A DNA stretch of 48,953 bases from a virus (Duplodnaviria; Heunggongvirae; Uroviricota; Caudoviricetes). The stretch lies in the IMG/VR virus record IMGVR_UViG_2579778802_000015, one strand, 5' to 3'. The translations under genes and the position numbers were made by a program. Within the stretch, counting starts at the first letter, position 1. Every line of letters begins with the position of its first letter. Positions 2,051 through 36,918 of this stretch are shown here, piece after piece. The notes below the pieces were generated by a model. It ran no database searches. It was given only the letters and a program-made list of their open reading frames with translations, and was not told the DNA's origin.

Positions 2051-5000
2051 TCAGCTAATCGTGATGCCTGCAGTGGCTTTCTTCATCACCACAACCAGCA
2101 AATCGCTGATACTTGCTGTGGGATACCAGTTATTTACCAGCCATGCTGACACCGAAAACTCCAGTGTCATGTGACCGTGACCGGCAGGCATATCAATAAC
2201 GCCACTGTAAATCAGCGTATTATCCAGCGCGGTACGGTTATAAATTTCAGCACCGTTTTTCCGCACTATCAGACGGCATGAGGAGTAAATATCAGTATGC
2301 TCTCTCTTATGCTTAGCGCCACTGAATGCCACCGCCGGAATAACAATCTGCCGGTCAAACGGCTGATCGTCATAAACCCTGACGGTAATGGTCCCTGATG
2401 GCCACCGCTCCGGTGCACGGGAGTCCCGGGGGAAAGCTTTGCCCACTGTTTTAACGAGATCGCCTTCAATCTGGTTGGCGGACAGTTTTCCCAGAACCCG
2501 ACAGTTCTCGTTAATCGTGACGTTGTTGAGCGTCCCGGAGTTCGCATTCACGTTACCGCTGATATCGGCATTTTTCGCCGTCAGCCGCCCGTCCGGTGTC
2601 AGGGAAAATGCCGGAGGATTACCGCCGCTGGCAATGGTGGGAGCCGTCAGGCGTTTCAGGAACACGTCGTTCATGAATATCTGATCGCCCTGACCAACAA
2701 ACATCGGCTTTGTGTTGCCATTCGCAGGATTAATCATCGCAATCCTGTCTGCCGCCAGCAGCACCTGACTCTGCATGCCGTCAGGGGTGTTTTCAATACC
2801 GGCACCAATACCCGCGATATAAAGGCGTCCGTCCTGCATCTGCTGCAGCTTCACAGCCCACATGCTGTTCAGGTTATTATTTGTATCAACCTGAACCTTC
2901 TGTATCTGCTGGATTGCCGCACTCTGGTCTTTCAGTTTCTTATTGACAGTCTGCGTGATTTCATTGCTGACATCCGTAATGGACGTCCTGATTTCAGCCA
3001 GGTCAGGCGCAAGCTGACCGTTATCAATCTGCGTCCACAGCTCCTGAGCCAGATGTGTTTTCCCTATCTCTCCTTTGAAAAAATCCAGGTAACCTTCCGC
3101 ATCATCGCTCGCCCGACCGACAGCCTCCACGAATGCCGATTTGCCAACAGTATTCACACTGCGGATATAAAAATAATAATCATGGCCCGGTTTGATATTG
3201 ATACTGGCAGCTATCCAGTACAGCGCCGAGCCAAGATAGCGGGCTGCGGTTTCAACCTGCCTGATATCCGCAATCCGCTTTTCCGAGAACCAGAACTCAA
3301 ACTGTACCGTCGGGTCATAAACGGCAAGATGCGGCGTGGCGGTTATCTGAAAATAGCCCGGCGTCAGCTCAATAGTGACCGGTGCCGCAGGCGCGTTAAT
3401 CCTGAAGGTGGTGGTCGCAGGTTCGCCCTGCTGGCCATAACTGTTAATCGCCCTGACCGTCAGGGTGTATTCCCCCAGCGGCAGGCCGCTGAAACGGTGC
3501 TCCGTGTCTGCGGTGATGGCGGTGGTCACCAGTCTGGCATCCGTTCCCTTACCACTGGTCAGGCGCAGACTGAAGCGCACACCCTTCACCACCCGCGGCG
3601 TGTCCCATTTAGCCTGCGCCAGATACTGGCCGTCAGCTGCACTCACCTCCACCGTCAGGTGCTGTACTGCCGGTGGGATGACGCTGTTCAGGGAACCTGA
3701 CTGCGGCTCAAAGCGGGCACCGTTATCCACGATGGCTTCTTTTTCCGGTACGTGCTGCACCGCCGTGATGGCAAAGGTGCCGTCCGTGTTTTCCCGGACG
3801 GAGACACAGCGGAACAGGCGACGGCGCAGTGACGGCAGGGAGAGTCCCCACACACCGTATGTCTCCACACCATCCGGCAGGGTGCTGACCTGTATCCGGT
3901 CAGGCGCGGGGTGTGCGGTGATGGCCACGCTCGCCGGCTTACCGCTGCCGTTAATCAGATTAACAGTGGTCGTGCCGGTCTCCGGCAGTGTCACCTCCCG
4001 GTCCAGCGTCAGGGTACGGCTGGCGGCATCGATGGACAGGACACGTCCGCCGGTCATGGTCCCGGCATAGTCGTTATCACAGATTTCAATGATGTCACCG
4101 GGTGTGTGACGCAGCCCCTGTGACCCGAGCGTGAAATCCACCGTCTGCGTTTCCAGCAGTTCGGTCTTTATCACCCACAGCCCGGCACGGTGGGCCTGAC
4201 CGCGGCTGGTACAGCCGAACGCGTCCATCTTCAGCAGGTTGCGTCCGTAGCGCAGTATGGCTTCCGGGTCTTCCACCAGTTCCGTGGAGGTCTGCCAGCC
4301 GTTCTGCGGGTCGGTGTAATTCACCTCCACCGCCGTGTGCCGGTCCTTCAGGGCACTGAAGCTGTAGCGGAAACCCACGCCGTTATCATCCACCACCACA
4401 TCGCTGCTGGTGTACGGCCACACCACATCCGACGGGCGGTCCTGAACGAACGTCAGCGTCTGACCGTTCCATACCGGCATACAGCGCATCGCAGAGCAGA
4501 AATCACTGAGAACGTCCCACGCCTTACGCTGTTGTGCCAGGTACGCATTAAAGGTCATCCGCGGCTCGGTCCCCCCGAAACCATCCGGGACCGTCTGGTC
4601 GCAGTACTGCCCGATGGCATACAGCGCCCACTTGTCCACATCCGCCGCCCCCAGACGTTTTCCCATGCCGTAGCGCGGGTGAGTCAGCATGTCCCACAGA
4701 CACCAGGCCGGGTTGTTGCTGTATGCCGGTTTCAGGCTGCCGTCCCAGATACCGCTGTACGTGCGTTTTTCCGGGTCATAGTTTGACGGCACCTGGATGA
4801 TGCGACCGCGGATATGGTAGTTCACCGTCATCTGCTGGCCGCCGAACTGCTCCGCATCCACCTGCAGCCCCACAATGGCCGTGTTCGGGTAGCACTGTTT
4901 CACATCGATGATTTCGGTGTATGACGACCAGAGCGTCTTATTCTGCAGCTGGTCCGTGGTGCTGTCCGCCGTCTCCCTGACCATCCGGATGTTAAAGGGC

Positions 5001-5524
5001 CGGGGAGGCAGATTATCCAGAATCACCGACGCCAGGAACTGCGAGGTGGTCTTGCCGTTAATGGTGACATCCTTTTCCGTCATCCATTTACCACCACGCT
5101 CAAGCTGAATCAGCAGGCGGACAGACGTCGGGTTACGGTCACCCTTTGAGGTGGTCTCCACCAGTGACTGCACCCCGAAGGTAACCCGCAGGCGGTCAAT
5201 GTTCGCGGACGTAATGGTGCGCGTCACCGGCTTTGCCTTCGTCACTTCCACACCCAGTACAGTTTCAGCTCCGGAGGACTCAAAGCCTTCCGGTGGTGTC
5301 TGCTCCTGCTCCCCGGCGCGCCAGACCGCTGTCACACCGTGTATCACGGGATTACCGTCCGTGTCCGTCAGCGGGGTTTTGTTCACCAGGATACTCTGCA
5401 GTCCCTTCACCGGGCCTTCCACCGGTCCCTCACCACTGGCATCAATCACGCTCATCATCTGCGTGGATTTGAGATTATCCTTCGCCTCACGAGGTGTGTG
5501 TGCCTTACCGCCACCTTTTCCCAT
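2051..5524 (-). CDS. J: Tail tip / host specificity protein J
   Basis: 1157 aa; N-terminus [22 protein letters not shown]... and long colinear similarity to lambda J as recalled. Confidence 0.95.
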
Positions 5525-29288: not shown

Positions 29289-29669
29289 TCACAGGCGCTG
29301 CACATATCTGTCCATCTCCAGCCGAACATCCAGCATCATCAGCATTCCTTCAATAACACCTTCAGCTTTTTGCAGCCGCTTTCCGATAGTCCCATCAGAG
29401 CATTCATGTTTTCGCGCCAGTGACATAAACGTCATCCCCCGCACGTAGCAATCAACCAGCAACTCATGCAAATCACTGTTGTTTCTGTTAAGGCGGGCCA
29501 TACACCCGCATATAATCATCGCGTCATCATCACAGCACTGTGGACGTGATTTTACTTTTTCGGGGATCAGCCCCTTAAATCCGGCAGCAATGGGCGACCA
29601 GCTCACATCCTCATGATTATTTGCCACCCATGCACCCCAGCGTTCAAGCACCTGCTGAATATCACGCAT
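29289..29669 (-). CDS. Q: Late antiterminator Q (non-lambda type, Q21/Q933-like family)
   Basis: [24 protein letters not shown]...[16 protein letters not shown]...; start taken at the ATG overlapping the upstream gene stop (ATGCGTGA); an alternative upstream start is at 29774. Confidence 0.8.
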
Positions 29670-29862
29670 CAGAGTCTTTCCCCTTATCCCATCCACGGTG
29701 AACCATAAGGACACCGTTGACGACGGCGTGCCGTTTGCCTTCTTTATCACCGACATATTTTCTGACCGTAGCACGATTACAGTTCAGTTTTCGTGAAACT
29801 TCAGTCATATTGCCTCGTGCCTGGATAAGCAATTCCGGTATTGTTTGAATTGTGGCGTTCAT
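29662..29862 (-). CDS. Small HTH DNA-binding protein (66 aa) translationally coupled to Q
   Basis: ...[28 protein letters not shown]... HTH; stop overlaps the Q start. Confidence 0.6.
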
Positions 29863-30547: not shown

Positions 30548-30723
30548 TTAAATCTTGCTCGACGCCTTAGCCACCGGATATCCCACAGGTGAGCCGTATA
30601 GTTGAAGGTTTTAACATCAGATTCTTTGGGGACTGGCCTGGGTTTATTTCGGGAGCGTTTGGTTGGAAGGTAATTGCAGTTTTCACAGACGATATCGGTG
30701 ATGCTTCGTCGCTGTCGTCTCAT
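30532..30723 (-). CDS. ninE: NinE
   Basis: 63 aa; [57 protein letters not shown] near-identical to lambda NinE as recalled. Confidence 0.85.
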
Positions 30724-31130
30724 TCGTACCTCCTGTCGGTAAATCTGACACCCTGATCCACGGCCCAGGATGTTGTGTACTCAATCAGGCTTGCCATACG
30801 CTTCACGCTCATTTGCGCACTGCTTTCGCGGATATTGACGTATTCACCTTCAAGACCTGGCAAAACATCAGCTTCCTGTTTTGTCGCCACGGCATGACCG
30901 CTGATTAACAAAACTTTCCACTGTTCTGGTTTTAGCCACCTGCCGCACCACTTAACCTGGCGGGATATATCAGCGACCATCGCGTGAAATTTTGCATTTT
31001 GAGCGAGATTACGCTTGTAATCGGTGATACGGATCGTAACGGGTTTGTCTTTATCGAGAGTTGTTGCAAGGATGGCGTTAATGGCGAATTGTTGCTGCTG
31101 CTTACTTCGGAGGAAGATAGTCTGGTTCAT
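30720..31130 (-). CDS. ninB: NinB recombination protein
   Basis: 136 aa; ...[28 protein letters not shown]... NinB pattern. Confidence 0.85.
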
Positions 31131-31184: not shown

Positions 31185-31886
31185 TCAGAATTCAAATTGT
31201 CTTGCCCGCAGGCTTTTCAGCATTGGCATGGCCCGCTGGATAACGGAACTTGACATGTCGAGACGTGTTACCTCCCTTAGTAGCGCGTCTCTGTTCTTCG
31301 TCACCATGTAGATAGTCTCAAACGCAATGTCATACAGCTTGTTCGTGTATGAGGAGTTCAGCTCTTTCATTATGGGGTACAGCTGCTTGCTAAGGTCCTG
31401 GGCTTTTTCCATCCAGAGTTGCATGTAACAAAGGAGGATGATTTCCTCGGCTGTGAATTGTGGCTGAATCTGCGGCTGCTGTTCGGTTGGTGCTGTTTTT
31501 CCCTGGCTGAAATAGCAGTCTTCCAGTTTTTCGAACACTTCCCACGCCTGATCGGTTTCGAGCATTTTTGCGTGACGGGCTGCGCCGCGTTCTGTCCAGA
31601 GGATGAGGGAGCGAACATTGCGGGCGATTTTCACAGAGTAACTTTCTGTTACCTCGCGGCTAACAGACTCGCTTAAAGATAGTCTGTGCTTAAACTCACG
31701 TAGTTCATTCCCTTCCAACTTAAAGAAATGTTTTCCCTGTACAAATCGCGCAGAGTTACGGGAAAAATTCATTTTTATATTGACTGTTTCAGTGCCATAC
31801 AATTGCGCCAATAATTCTGTAGTAATTACGGGGATCTGGTTGTAGGCAATTGGGGAAAGAGTTTCAACGGAAATTTGAGTCGCCAT
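31185..31886 (-). CDS. ORF6N-domain antirepressor/Roi-like protein
   Basis: 233 aa; N-terminal ...TTELLAQLYGTETVNIKMNFSRNSARFVQGKHFFKLEGNELREFK... ORF6N pattern. Confidence 0.6.
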   Translation of the reverse strand: MATQISVETLSPIAYNQIPVITTELLAQLYGTETVNIKMNFSRNSARFVQGKHFFKLEGNELREFKHRLSLSESVSREVTESYSVKIARNVRSLILWTERGAARHAKMLETDQAWEVFEKLEDCYFSQGKTAPTEQQPQIQPQFTAEEIILLCYMQLWMEKAQDLSKQLYPIMKELNSSYTNKLYDIAFETIYMVTKNRDALLREVTRLDMSSSVIQRAMPMLKSLRARQFEF

Positions 31887-32194
31887 GACAACGCCCTCTG
31901 GTTGATGAATTTAACTATCACCACCGTCAGGTGCAAATCTTTGGGTGGTGAGACGTACAGGGTTTGCACTACCGGATCAACCAACCGGCGAGCCTTTCGG
32001 CTCCCCCATACGCCCCACCATAATTCAGATGTGCGTGTGCTTACGACAACAAAAAACACGCTCGCGGCGTGTGTCTGTCGCGGTTGAATATCCGGGGTGC
32101 AAATCCCGACGCCAGATTTTGCTGGCGTGCGAAGAATATAATCCCGGATATGTGTTGTCGTCAACATACCTTGAATGTATATAACAAATTTGTT

Positions 32195-32536
32195 ATGTTT
32201 ACTCTCATGAACTACATTATCGAATACTACAGTGACGAGGTTGAAGCTGAGATCCTTTCTCTTCCTGAGACCTTACAAGCCCGGTACATTCGGTACACGG
32301 AGAAAATGCGTATTTACGGAGCTAATCTTGGTTCCCCGCATACAGAGGCATTTGGCGACGGTTTGTTTGAAATCCGCCTTAAGGGCTCGGAAGGCATAGG
32401 GCGTGTTTTTTACTGCACGCTAAAAGGAAAGCGAATCATTATGTTGCATAGCTTTGTAAAGAAAACGCAAAAAACTCCACCTGCCGAGCTTAGAAAAGCT
32501 GAAACCAGAATGAAGGAGGTTAAGCATGACTGGTAA
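32195..32536 (+). CDS. Gp49/HigB-like RelE-superfamily toxin
   Basis: MFTLMNYIIEYYSDEVEAEILSLPE...FEIRLKGSEGIGRVFYCTLKGKRIIMLHSFVKKTQKTP...; overlaps the downstream HTH gene. Confidence 0.7.
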   Translation: MFTLMNYIIEYYSDEVEAEILSLPETLQARYIRYTEKMRIYGANLGSPHTEAFGDGLFEIRLKGSEGIGRVFYCTLKGKRIIMLHSFVKKTQKTPPAELRKAETRMKEVKHDW

Positions 32537-32834
32537 ACGTACCCCACCTACCATGACACACGATGAAATGGTAGAAAAAATGTTGTCTAACCCCGCAGTA
32601 AAAGCAGAATACGACGCCATCGCCGATGAATTCGCACTACTTGATGAAATGCTGGCAGCACGAAAAGAAGCTGGCTTAACCCAGGCTGAAGTTGCCGAAC
32701 GTATGGGAACAAAAGCGACCGCGATCACCAGAATGGAAAGTAATCTCGCATCAGGTATCAGCGGCCCATCATTTGCCACACTAAAAAAATTCGCCCGCGC
32801 TACTGGAAAAAAACTCCAGATCCGCTTCGTTTAA
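32526..32834 (+). CDS. XRE-family HTH antitoxin (HigA-like)
   Basis: 102 aa; ...AARKEAGLTQAEVAERMGTKATAITRMES... HTH; 11-bp overlap with the toxin gene. Confidence 0.7.
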   Translation: MTGKRTPPTMTHDEMVEKMLSNPAVKAEYDAIADEFALLDEMLAARKEAGLTQAEVAERMGTKATAITRMESNLASGISGPSFATLKKFARATGKKLQIRFV

Positions 32835-32888
32835 CTCTCCACTACCGCGCCGTCATTCTGGCGGCGCTTTACCCCAGAGAAATATCAA

Positions 32889-33134
32889 TCACCGGATTAC
32901 CACATCCCACTCCGGCTCCTGCCATCTCAAATCCGGTGAATCATTTCTCTCAGGAATAACCATTACGTCCTTTTCCCTTCGCTCCCTTTCTATCGCCATC
33001 ACAGCCAATGCTGCAACCATGATGTATTTTTGTTCGTCGGTTCCTGTTTCATAACGACGCATGAGGGTAAACTCGGGGCGATCAGTAACCTCAATGATTT
33101 CGTTAATTTCTTTAATTTCGCGAGGAATATCCAT
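32889..33134 (-). CDS. Hypothetical acidic protein (81 aa; alternative start at 33158)
   Basis: MDIPREIKEINEIIEVTDRPEF...; SD AAGGAGA; its ATG shares a CCATGG palindrome with the divergent plus-strand gene. Confidence 0.5.
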   Translation of the reverse strand: MDIPREIKEINEIIEVTDRPEFTLMRRYETGTDEQKYIMVAALAVMAIERERREKDVMVIPERNDSPDLRWQEPEWDVVIR

Positions 33135-33807
33135 GGGTTTAGTCTCCTTTGATATCACATGCCCGCACTGTTTAAAAGAGCGAGCTGTTATTGAGGCATT
33201 TGCCGAAAAACAAATTGAAAAAACACCTTTTTTTAACGTCGCTTTTGTATGCAGAAGTTGTCATCGAGGAGGTGTTGCTATTGTTGAAATCCCATCAGAC
33301 CACTATCACGGTCCCATGGCGGAAAGCCAGAAAAAAGACCTCGATATTCTGATTTCAGGAAATAGCCAGTACCGTTTCCGCAAGATCTATCCTGTGGTCA
33401 AAAAAATTACCGCACCAGAATATACGCCCCCGGTTGCAGACCGTACTTTTGTTGAGGCAAAAGAGGATTTACAGAGGAGGCGGTACGACACAGTGGTTAT
33501 TCTTTGTCGCAGAGTCCTCGATATCTCCACGAAAAAACTGCTCGGCGATGAAGCAGGAAAAGAATCGCTGTCGCAACGTATTCAGATGATTTACAAAAAA
33601 GGCCTGATCACTGAACAGATGAAGGAATGGGCTCATATTGTACGAATTGATGCCAATAAAGCAGTTCATACAGATGAAGTTTTCACACCAATTGAGGCAA
33701 GCCAGATCCTGAGTTTTACCGAAATGTTTTTAGTCTACGCCTTCACTCTGCCTGCAATGGTGGAAGCCAGACGTGAACAAAAAAGCTCAGATTCAGCCTC
33801 TATATGA
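33133..33807 (+). CDS. Zinc-ribbon protein with C-terminal DUF4145-like domain (224 aa), candidate defence/abortive-infection gene
   Basis: MGLVSFDITCPHCLKERAV...CRSCHRGG... then ...YDTVVILCRRVLDISTKKLLG...HIVRIDANKAVHTDE...; SD GAGGAA; opposite strand to the nin operon. Confidence 0.65.
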   Translation: MGLVSFDITCPHCLKERAVIEAFAEKQIEKTPFFNVAFVCRSCHRGGVAIVEIPSDHYHGPMAESQKKDLDILISGNSQYRFRKIYPVVKKITAPEYTPPVADRTFVEAKEDLQRRRYDTVVILCRRVLDISTKKLLGDEAGKESLSQRIQMIYKKGLITEQMKEWAHIVRIDANKAVHTDEVFTPIEASQILSFTEMFLVYAFTLPAMVEARREQKSSDSASI

Positions 33808-35829: not shown

Positions 35830-36918
35830 TTACCCCCTGAAACCCGGCGGAATTTCGGTGTCCGGTTCAGAAATGTGATTCACGCAACGCAGGCTGACTG
35901 CGCCAGCCTTCGGCAGCGACCACGGATTTTCGAAATTCCTGTTCGGGCCAAAAAACGTCGATGCCTGCTGAACAAATTCAGTTCCCGCTTTCCCGGTAGC
36001 CTCCAGGTATCTTGCGTAACGCCTCACGCCATCCAGCACGACATCCGGTGACACCCCTTCGCGTAATCTGGCCCTCCAGGCATTGAACGCGGATTTCTTC
36101 GGGTTTGACCCTGCCCGATGCGGATATTCACGCCAGACCCGTTCGAACACGTCAGGATAATCAACTCGTCCCGCAGACGGTCCCGGCATCGCCCGGGTTA
36201 ACCCAATCGGCTTCCCGCTCATCGCGGAATCGGCTTCAGGCTGCTGCGGTTGGCGTTGTTGCTCCGGTTCGACGATCAGCACCTGCTGCACACAACGCCC
36301 GGAATCTGCTTCCGGTGTCGTGCCAGCTGGTCCTGGACGTTCAGTCAGAACAGGACAAAAATCCCCCTGCGGGTCCGTGGCGGTTTTTTCGCCATGGACC
36401 AGAAGGGGTTTATCCCTTTCCTGTTCTTGTTCCTGTTCCTGTTCCTGTTCTTGGCTTGAAAGAGGCTCTGAAGGGGCTTCAATTTTCCGACATGATTCAC
36501 GTCTGACATCCAGGTGGAAATCATCCTTATATCTATCATAAAAGGATGATAAAAAAGGATTTTCCAGCAACACGGAATATTCATTTCTTACCCCAGCACA
36601 ACGGTTATCGCCAGGTTTCAGCGATTCACCAACCTGCCATGCTGCCATTTCATGCACCCATACAACCTCAGAATCATGGTCATAGCTGCAAAAACCAGCC
36701 TCGCAAGCCATTTGAAGCCCCTTAGAAGCCCCTTCAGGATCAAGTCCGGTTTCGTGAGCAATGTACAAAACAGGCAGGTAATAAAGGCCCAGCATATTGG
36801 AATGAGGCGAGGTCATCATATACAACGCCACTACCATACATTCCGGACCAGACTTCCTTAGTTTTCTCCCTGTTTCGCCTAACCAGAACTGAGGTGAAAT
36901 TGTTGCGTAATTACGCAT
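35830..36918 (-). CDS. Replication initiation / replisome organizer protein (O position)
   Basis: 362 aa; position of lambda O upstream of the helicase loader; central EQEQEQEQEQE linker encoded by (CTGTTC)n; conserved C-terminal domain. Confidence 0.7.
   Translation of the reverse strand: MRNYATISPQFWLGETGRKLRKSGPECMVVALYMMTSPHSNMLGLYYLPVLYIAHETGLDPEGASKGLQMACEAGFCSYDHDSEVVWVHEMAAWQVGESLKPGDNRCAGVRNEYSVLLENPFLSSFYDRYKDDFHLDVRRESCRKIEAPSEPLSSQEQEQEQEQEQERDKPLLVHGEKTATDPQGDFCPVLTERPGPAGTTPEADSGRCVQQVLIVEPEQQRQPQQPEADSAMSGKPIGLTRAMPGPSAGRVDYPDVFERVWREYPHRAGSNPKKSAFNAWRARLREGVSPDVVLDGVRRYARYLEATGKAGTEFVQQASTFFGPNRNFENPWSLPKAGAVSLRCVNHISEPDTEIPPGFRG
36418..36452. repeat. Hexanucleotide tandem repeat (CTGTTC-like, about 6 copies) inside the replication initiator gene
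   Basis: cctgttcttgttcctgttcctgttcctgttcttg read directly. Confidence 0.8.

Follow-up and report, generated by a model that had tools for sequence, protein, structure and literature searches.

In a lambdoid prophage, two short overlapping genes of the toxin-antitoxin (TA) type stand back to back with an antirepressor gene, which raises the question whether the pair is a genuine TA module and to which of the two neighbours the sequence between them belongs. The locus is part of a 48,953-nucleotide stretch of viral DNA (Caudoviricetes; IMG/VR record IMGVR_UViG_2579778802_000015), referred to below as the window. An initial annotation, made from the letters alone, had read it as a HigB/HigA-like TA module embedded in the nin region. 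Based on sequence comparison and structure modelling, we find that the pair is very probably a type II TA of the Gp49/HigB-HigA (Tad-Ata) class. The 308 bp (31887-32194) between the minus-strand antirepressor gene (ant) and the toxin start assumed at first (32195) are, by their sequence features, an isrK/C4 antisense-RNA leader controlling ant, almost fully occupied by RNA genes and their targets. Coordinates of the features are given in Table 1.

The open reading frame (ORF) table agrees with the plus-strand, toxin-first order described initially, with the 11-bp overlap, with the toxin end at 32536 and with the position of the partner gene, and the peptide quoted for the toxin (FEIRLKGSEGIGRVFYCTLKGKRIIMLHSF) is present in the translation. 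Against the Pfam family Gp49 (PF05973) the toxin yields an E-value of 5e-27 (94 bits at a cutoff of 23.9) over 89 of the 90 profile positions, and the same domain is found in all 120 toxin homologues listed. The family is large (2352 clusters at E <= 1e-5, mostly 107-111 aa) and the protein is unusually conserved, with identities of 65-79% in Methylococcales, Burkholderiales, Arsenophonus and Photorhabdus; an identical protein occurs in at least nine IMG/VR contigs. The AlphaFold2 model (34 homologues; pLDDT 84, pTM 0.76) consists of two N-terminal helices, four long strands plus a short N-terminal strand, and a C-terminal helix (residues 92-107) whose length is a feature of Gp49-like toxins (PMC9098466). 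Top Foldseek matches of this model are to Streptococcus pneumoniae HigB (6AF3/6AF4, TM about 0.75); ribosome-bound Mycobacterium tuberculosis HigB1 (7AWK/7NBU) is matched at TM 0.75-0.77, and RelE, YafQ, YoeB and Vibrio cholerae HigB2 come next. Profile and fold thus bear out the Gp49/HigB-like, RelE-fold toxin of the initial annotation.

Similarity extends to the active site. The sequence match to the 6AF3 chain has an E-value of 7e-5, and a phmmer alignment to 6AF3_A places E59, R61, R70, F87, K89, Q92 and K93 of the toxin (numbered on the 113-aa form that starts at 32195) as equivalents of the catalytic residues reported for S. pneumoniae HigB (E66, R68, R73, F90 and K92) and M. tuberculosis HigB1 (Q98 and K99; PMC9098466). 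Alignment A3 shows no variation at any of the seven positions, and alignment A4 lists each of them except Q92 as invariant. By analogy with these enzymes, the toxin is predicted to act as an mRNA endonuclease that depends on the ribosome.

The second protein matches HTH_3 at E 3e-11 (43.6 bits at a cutoff of 23) and PHROG 1373 at E 7e-36, in line with the XRE-type helix-turn-helix (HTH) partner proposed at the outset. Its best match in the PDB is HigA of the S. pneumoniae HigBA structure (6AF3_B, E 2e-3), meaning that toxin and antitoxin match the two chains of one solved complex. Profile searches, which had been named as a check on the RelE-fold and XRE homology, accordingly found homology for both proteins. 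The pairing itself is strongly conserved: in 79 out of 80 loci (species representatives from many phyla) an antitoxin homologue lies directly downstream of the toxin, and the sole exception is cut by a contig end. A near-identical arrangement is annotated as HigB/HigA in phage PhiR5_2 (GenBank) and is present in 12 complete Escherichia coli genomes as 'RelE/ParE family toxin' and 'HTH protein' (PGAP); the module is therefore already labelled as a TA by automatic annotation. Taken together, profiles, structure and pairing sustain the HigB/HigA-like assignment.

The toxin start requires correction: the end at 32536 stands, but the start at 32195 lies 12 nt too early with respect to ATG 32207. 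The upstream ATG was rejected as a start: it forms part of the conserved -10 hexamer (TATGTT), and distant homologues have no ATG at that position. Given that the PHROG 2523 alignment begins at residue 6 of the 113-aa form, that most homologues have the length stated above, that the PGAP start of a 72%-identical relative is the equivalent of 32207 and that the -10 is conserved, the sequence comparison places the start at ATG 32207, with a protein of 109 aa.

The upstream alignment covered 125 nt 5' of the toxin in relatives that are 48-100% identical and stand in unrelated contexts, and operators were scored in 122 distinct upstream regions of toxin homologues against shuffled sequences. The motif TAAC-N6-GTTA is present in 68 of these regions (against 4% of the shuffles); in 60 of the 68 its centre precedes the ATG by 17-18 nt. 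The position matrix of the family reads TTG (-35), a 17-nt spacer holding the palindrome, TAnnAT (-10), 6-7 nt and the ATG; in the window the distance between -10 and ATG 32207 is 7 nt. The antitoxin would bind the palindrome ATAACAAATTTGTTAT, of which no further copy is found in the window (for instance near ant or in the immunity region), and would thereby repress the TA promoter. An alternative promoter with -35 TTGTCG (32155-32160) and -10 TATATA was rejected, as relatives carry indels of 4 and 7 nt between these hexamers; TTGAAT-17-TATGTT is preferred because its spacing is fixed and it matches the family-wide matrix. A Shine-Dalgarno sequence is found ahead of neither candidate toxin start (32195 or 32207), and we predict a leaderless toxin mRNA. 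A strong one precedes the antitoxin gene (AGGAGG at 32514-32519, 6 nt ahead of the ATG). Past the antitoxin stop, a hairpin (-19.1 kcal/mol, z -3.6, with 0 shuffles folding as well) likely terminates the operon.

Table 1. Features of the TA and isrK/C4/ant locus, in positions of the window
Feature	Position	Strand	Description
Toxin gene	32207-32536	+	109 aa; Gp49/HigB-type, RelE/ParE superfamily
Antitoxin gene	32526-32834	+	102 aa; N-terminal extension and C-terminal XRE-type HTH
Predicted TA promoter/operator	32171-32206	+	-35 TTGAAT 32171-32176, 17-nt spacer, -10 TATGTT 32194-32199
Putative TA operator ATAACAAATTTGTTAT	32181-32196		perfect 16-bp palindrome in spacer and -10
Hairpin, likely TA terminator	32847-32867	+	GC-rich, then UUUA, just past antitoxin stop
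Antirepressor gene (ant)	31185-31886	-	233 aa; ORF6N and P22_AR_C
Predicted isrK-C4-ant promoter	32164-32135	-	-35 TTGACG 32164-32159, 18-nt spacer, -10 TATATT 32140-32135
isrK-like small RNA/leader	32128-32051	-	Rfam RF01394, 75.4 bits (gathering 50), full length
C4-type antisense RNA	32025-31941	-	Rfam RF01695, 74.4 bits (gathering 45), full length
C4 target sites in ant mRNA leader	31939-31892	-	b2 GAUUUGCACC 31939-31930; a2 AUCAACCAGAGGGCG 31906-31892

The sequence on the other side of the TA promoter belongs to the neighbour. It had been described as a 300-bp intergenic region with internal dyad symmetry: the dyads are there, but the region is not intergenic, as the minus strand encodes isrK and C4 RNA genes. 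Most of the dyads within 31887-32194 are RNA stems of these genes and only the 16-bp palindrome belongs to the TA, so that the region put forward for footprinting of the HTH protein is an antisense-RNA leader rather than a HigA operator field. The isrK promoter is sigma-70-like (10 of 12 matches in the promoter scan), and its TTGAC and TATATT are invariant in seven aligned loci with differing upstream neighbours; the Rfam match to isrK begins at 32128, 7 nt past the -10. The decoy targets a1 and b1 (b1 GAUUUGCACC, 32105-32096) lie within isrK, as does an intrinsic terminator formed by a stem (32072-32056) and a U-run, and an overlapping match to c4-a1b1 (RF03163) reaches 42.2 bits, just below the gathering score of 46.7.

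The C4-type RNA that follows is, judged by its sequence, a homologue of P1/P7 c4 and of Gifsy-1 STnc1160. Its loop b' (GUGCAAACCC, 31969-31960) is complementary to b1 as well as b2, whereas the UUGGUUGAU of loop a' (within 31990-31976) is complementary to AUCAACCAG at 31906-31898, directly adjoining the Shine-Dalgarno sequence of ant, which is itself taken in by the a2 site AUCAACCAGAGGGCG. The target sites were recovered as direct repeat D4 and inverted repeats I2 and I4 of the repeat analysis, and covariation is visible in alignment A1. Among the 104 related loci listed, drawn from IMG/VR and GenBank, the b1 core equals the b2 core and has its reverse complement in C4 in 101, distributed over eight specificity classes. 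Such three-way covariation is what a functional antisense system with heteroimmune specificities should show.

The gene under this control was noted initially as a divergent ORF6N-like gene, and indeed matches Pfam ORF6N (E 2e-20) and P22_AR_C (E 2e-7) as well as PHROG 377, 'anti-repressor Ant' (E 5e-83); its product would be an Ant-type antirepressor. By analogy with P1 immI, C4 would mask the translation of ant. An orf45-type double AUG is conserved inside C4 (AUGGUGGGGCGUAUG; 32021-31977, minus strand), and the ORF that it opens is closed after 14 codons, its end lying some 90 nt upstream of the ant start. An icd- or orf45-like upstream ORF coupled to ant is therefore absent from this locus and, given the early stop, coupling of the orf45-anrP type cannot operate here; ant is probably controlled by direct masking of its ribosome-binding site, in the manner of P1 icd.

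Two further observations concern this RNA region. ORFs have been called or annotated as 'hypothetical protein' over isrK/C4 (31826-32167, minus strand, in the window; 4916-5038, minus strand, in PhiR5_2 locus L001); as two structured RNA genes occupy the same sequence, these ORFs are probably spurious. In addition, sRNA-Xcc1 (RF02221, 67-80 bits) was found at L002 3273-3363, L005 976-1059, L134 2133-2216 and L135 2134-2219. These loci stem from E. coli, Shigella phage 75/02 Stx and Edwardsiella prophages, and the RNA is immediately followed there by antirepressor-like genes of BRO, Ant or Rha type. It thus resembles C4 and would form a second class of antirepressor leader RNA; Rfam places C4 and c4-a1b1 in clan CL00128 and lists no clan for sRNA-Xcc1.

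Neighbouring genes identify the host element as a lambdoid prophage with its early-right operon on the minus strand. A CI-like repressor gene is located at 37908-38621 (plus strand), and a minus-strand ORF of 362 aa (35830-36918), without a Pfam match, occupies the position of 'replication protein O' in PhiR5_2. It is followed on the minus strand by a DnaC-like loader, DUF1627 and DUF977, and further along by NinB (30720-31130), NinE, YbcO, RusA and Q (29289-29774). The TA thus sits between the replication genes and the NinB/NinE/YbcO/RusA/Q genes, which agrees with the nin-region placement given initially, and its orientation opposes early transcription of the phage. On its right flank lie a divergent 89-aa ORF (32889-33158, minus strand; PHROG 8371, unknown function) and a DUF4145 protein (33133-33807, plus strand; Pfam E 4e-9), the latter with a weak PADLOC match to PD-T7-4 (E 2e-3). 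Both are also kept beside several alternative TA cassettes, and the DUF4145 gene might itself have an accessory or defence role. The minus strand also encodes the STnc100 small RNA (RF02076) twice, each time in full length, downstream of Q, the antiterminator gene (27466-27674 and 27950-28141; 130 and 145 bits), and PhiR5_2 has the same pair.

Summarizing the above in a working model, the locus would consist of two separate accessory cassettes placed back to back: the TA at 32171-32867 (plus strand) and isrK/C4/ant at 32164-31185 (minus strand). In the former, a sigma-70 promoter with ATAACAAATTTGTTAT in its spacer would drive a leaderless bicistronic mRNA, the first cistron giving a RelE-fold, ribosome-dependent mRNA endonuclease and the second an antitoxin that would neutralise it via the N-terminal extension. 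The antitoxin, alone or in complex, would repress the promoter at the palindrome. A leaderless toxin would be poorly translated and an antitoxin with a strong Shine-Dalgarno well translated, leaving the antitoxin in excess. Upon loss of the prophage, or when an infecting phage blocks host gene expression, toxin would be freed and translation would stop, resulting in prophage addiction, abortive infection or both; stabilisation of the prophage and abortive infection, the roles suggested initially, are plausible in this respect. The other cassette would run from its promoter through the isrK decoys and terminator to C4, the b2/a2 sites over the ribosome-binding site and ant.

The closest parallels to the TA are found on other mobile elements. 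The gp49/gp48 pair was first described in N15. N15 gp49-gp48, Tad-Ata and SXT s045-s044 resemble the pair studied here in that the toxin has a Gp49 domain, its gene precedes that of an XRE-HTH antitoxin ('reverse' operon), and the carrier is a temperate phage or mobile element. With 43% identity over 81% of the toxin of the window, N15 gp49 also shares the H-F-x-KKTQKTP motif, though its N-terminal 20 residues differ; moreover, N15 is a plasmid-prophage that needs segregational stability, whereas the present host element is a chromosomally integrated lambdoid prophage. The Tad-Ata group, in which the toxin gene invariably comes first, has been validated experimentally (Dziewit 2007, as cited in PMC5906591). 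S. pneumoniae HigBA and M. tuberculosis HigB1 give the best sequence and fold matches, yet share only about 19-20% identity with the toxin, and the SecB-like chaperone gene of the mycobacterial toxin-antitoxin-chaperone (TAC) systems is missing from this locus. Classical HigBA (Rts1/Proteus vulgaris and E. coli K-12) is likewise toxin-first, with a RelE-fold ribosome-dependent RNase and an XRE-HTH antitoxin, but classical HigB belongs to a different Pfam family, not Gp49, and P. vulgaris HigB is only a weak Foldseek match (E about 0.16).

For the RNA cassette, P1/P7 immI (c4-icd-ant) and Gifsy-1 isrK-orf45-anrP (PMC4825925) show the same order of promoter, a1/b1, C4-type RNA, a2/b2 and antirepressor, and the specificity classes of the isrK/C4 loci co-vary in the manner of P1 versus P7 heteroimmunity. 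Different from P1 immI and Gifsy-1, an icd-like or 45-codon ORF is absent here and a2 directly abuts the ribosome-binding site of ant. The upstream neighbour differs as well, being a divergent TA in place of antQ.

Given that the two promoters stand back to back with their -35 hexamers only 6 bp apart, it might be argued that TA and isrK-C4-ant form one functionally coupled, co-selected supermodule. The antitoxin or the TA complex could tune the isrK promoter from a site some 60 bp ahead of the isrK start, so that stress-induced loss of the antitoxin would trigger Ant and prophage induction; alternatively, TA addiction could guard the anti-immunity cassette against deletion. A precedent exists in paaR2-paaA2-parE2 of cryptic prophage CP-933P, which is addictive and has been proposed to limit rearrangements of the adjacent immunity region (PMC8630535). 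That system, too, is a type II TA in the regulatory region of a lambdoid prophage, but it has a ParE toxin in a three-gene operon with a CI-like regulator and lies in the immunity region, against Gp49 and the nin region here. All counts apply to the matches listed, and the sampled loci are phylogenetically related. A divergent isrK hairpin is located 96-102 nt from the toxin start in 36 of the 51 IMG/VR homologues with at least 66% identity, spanning six C4 specificities, and the combined unit occurs in at least three genomic contexts. In other isrK-C4-ant phages the slot beside the isrK promoter is filled by four further types of TA-like cassette, among them a classical HigB/HigA pair (e.g. 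JNEC-KY204), which is therefore an alternative to this module rather than the same one, a ParD-like antitoxin with a lipoprotein and an orphan HigA, and a COG4737-like RelE with a COG2944-like HTH. In an Edwardsiella prophage the TA is divergent from an isrK-like element, sRNA-Xcc1 and a Rha gene; alignment of this intergenic region to the window gave no DNA homology, so Rfam matches alone were used there.

Several observations nevertheless speak against such coupling. Genes upstream of isrK, classified by clustering and manual labels, are an identified co-directional nin-region gene in about 63% of the 104 loci listed (66, against 25 with a divergent TA-like cassette and 13 unclassified). The isrK hairpin is found beside none of the 27 toxin homologues below 66% identity among the IMG/VR matches listed, and neither Ant nor isrK was found near the TA family in 80 loci of other bacteria. 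The spacing between TA operator and isrK -35 differs by 0, 4 or 7 nt among relatives, so that helical phase is not conserved, which argues against stereospecific co-regulation. An ancient link between TA and antirepressor was also considered and rejected, as N15 gp49/gp48 does not lie beside its antirepressor locus. Furthermore, the relatedness of the sampled loci lowers the weight of the counts. In Shigella phage 75/02 Stx the TA stands without isrK, yet spacer and -35 of the isrK promoter remain as a scar. Both cassettes are mosaic modules. Their linkage is real within enterobacterial phages, but the simplest explanation is a single ancestral insertion at the isrK promoter that spread through homologous recombination in the conserved isrK/C4 sequence, together with the gathering of accessory cassettes at a hotspot. 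We therefore consider functional coupling distinctly unlikely. A 'TA-guarded anti-immunity switch', in which TA and isrK/C4-ant are co-inherited and share a 70-bp divergent promoter region, is unlikely too; if true, the TA would make loss of C4/ant lethal, or feed antitoxin decay and toxin activity into Ant expression and induction, and recurrent replacement of TA families at this position would reflect selection for any TA instead of a neutral hotspot. A literature search found no paper on TA modules paired with C4/isrK cassettes, but this search was incomplete and its outcome is absence of evidence only.

The type II TA reading itself has to be weighed against the idea that the module is domesticated or inactive, with a toxin that is non-toxic or barely translated and an HTH protein that serves as a phage transcription factor or as an 'orphan-like' anti-TA antitoxin neutralising homologous toxins of the host or of rival phages. 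In PhiR5_2 and two IMG/VR loci (L227 and L229) ATA replaces ATG at the predicted toxin start (at about 5087-5089 of L001 for PhiR5_2) while the antitoxin is intact; these copies are otherwise 99% identical, and GenBank lists a truncated 77-aa 'HigB' for PhiR5_2. The change is possibly a natural silencing of the toxin, which may be dispensable or silenced in some phages; its loss with retention of the antitoxin implies that it is not indispensable to the phage. Slot variants that keep HigA or ParD antitoxins without a recognisable toxin point in the same direction, as do Gp49-family members that are non-toxic, such as M. tuberculosis HigB2 and HigB3 (PMC9098466). Other results that count against a functional TA are that 44% of the homologue upstream regions lack the palindrome, that the T-run after the hairpin is short, so that its terminator role is tentative, that an NCBIfam search with the toxin gave a sub-threshold match only, that PADLOC matched no described defence system (a partial match of the toxin to the NsnC C-terminus, E 5e-8 over 51 residues, and weak generic HTH matches were obtained), and that our literature search found no experiment on this module or a close relative. 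On the other hand, the copy in the window retains its ATG, a full-length ORF and every catalytic equivalent, the identical protein recurs in the contigs mentioned above, and the high identity is maintained across bacterial classes; an inactive module is accordingly very unlikely. The missing Shine-Dalgarno at either toxin start would also suit chance ORFs or a mis-annotation without any gene pair, but the E-values of the profile matches, the fold similarity, the gene pairing (79 of 80 loci) and the conservation of a leaderless-type promoter effectively refute this, leaving it a probability close to nil. Type II TA of the Gp49/HigB-HigA class hence remains the preferred reading.

Some observations on related loci may be added. 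Many Stx2a phages carry apparent TA remnants beside the isrK promoter (a ParD-like antitoxin, a small lipoprotein and an orphan HigA) without a recognisable toxin. Such remnants are seen at L002 4480-5458, L008 3178-4155 and in L025, and the L008 unit lies near the integrase, outside the nin region. The Edwardsiella prophage L134 has a second Gp49 plus HTH pair (4278-4929), 1.4 kb from the first and in opposite orientation, with DUF4160/DUF2442, another putative TA-like pair, in between.

Overall, the module is an ordinary, automatically annotated prophage TA of HigBA type, of which the start codon and the intergenic region are corrected. Its conserved promoter architecture, with the operator in the spacer and the start codon at the predicted transcription start, offers a model for antitoxin excess in toxin-first operons and also corrects start-codon calls. 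Lambdoid prophage regions that usually pass for 'intergenic' or for small hypothetical ORFs harbour an isrK/C4 switch, predicted to control antirepressors and present in at least eight specificity classes; this matters for the induction of Stx phages. Finally, the recurrence of different TA families beside this switch provides a testable lead on TAs in prophage regulatory regions.

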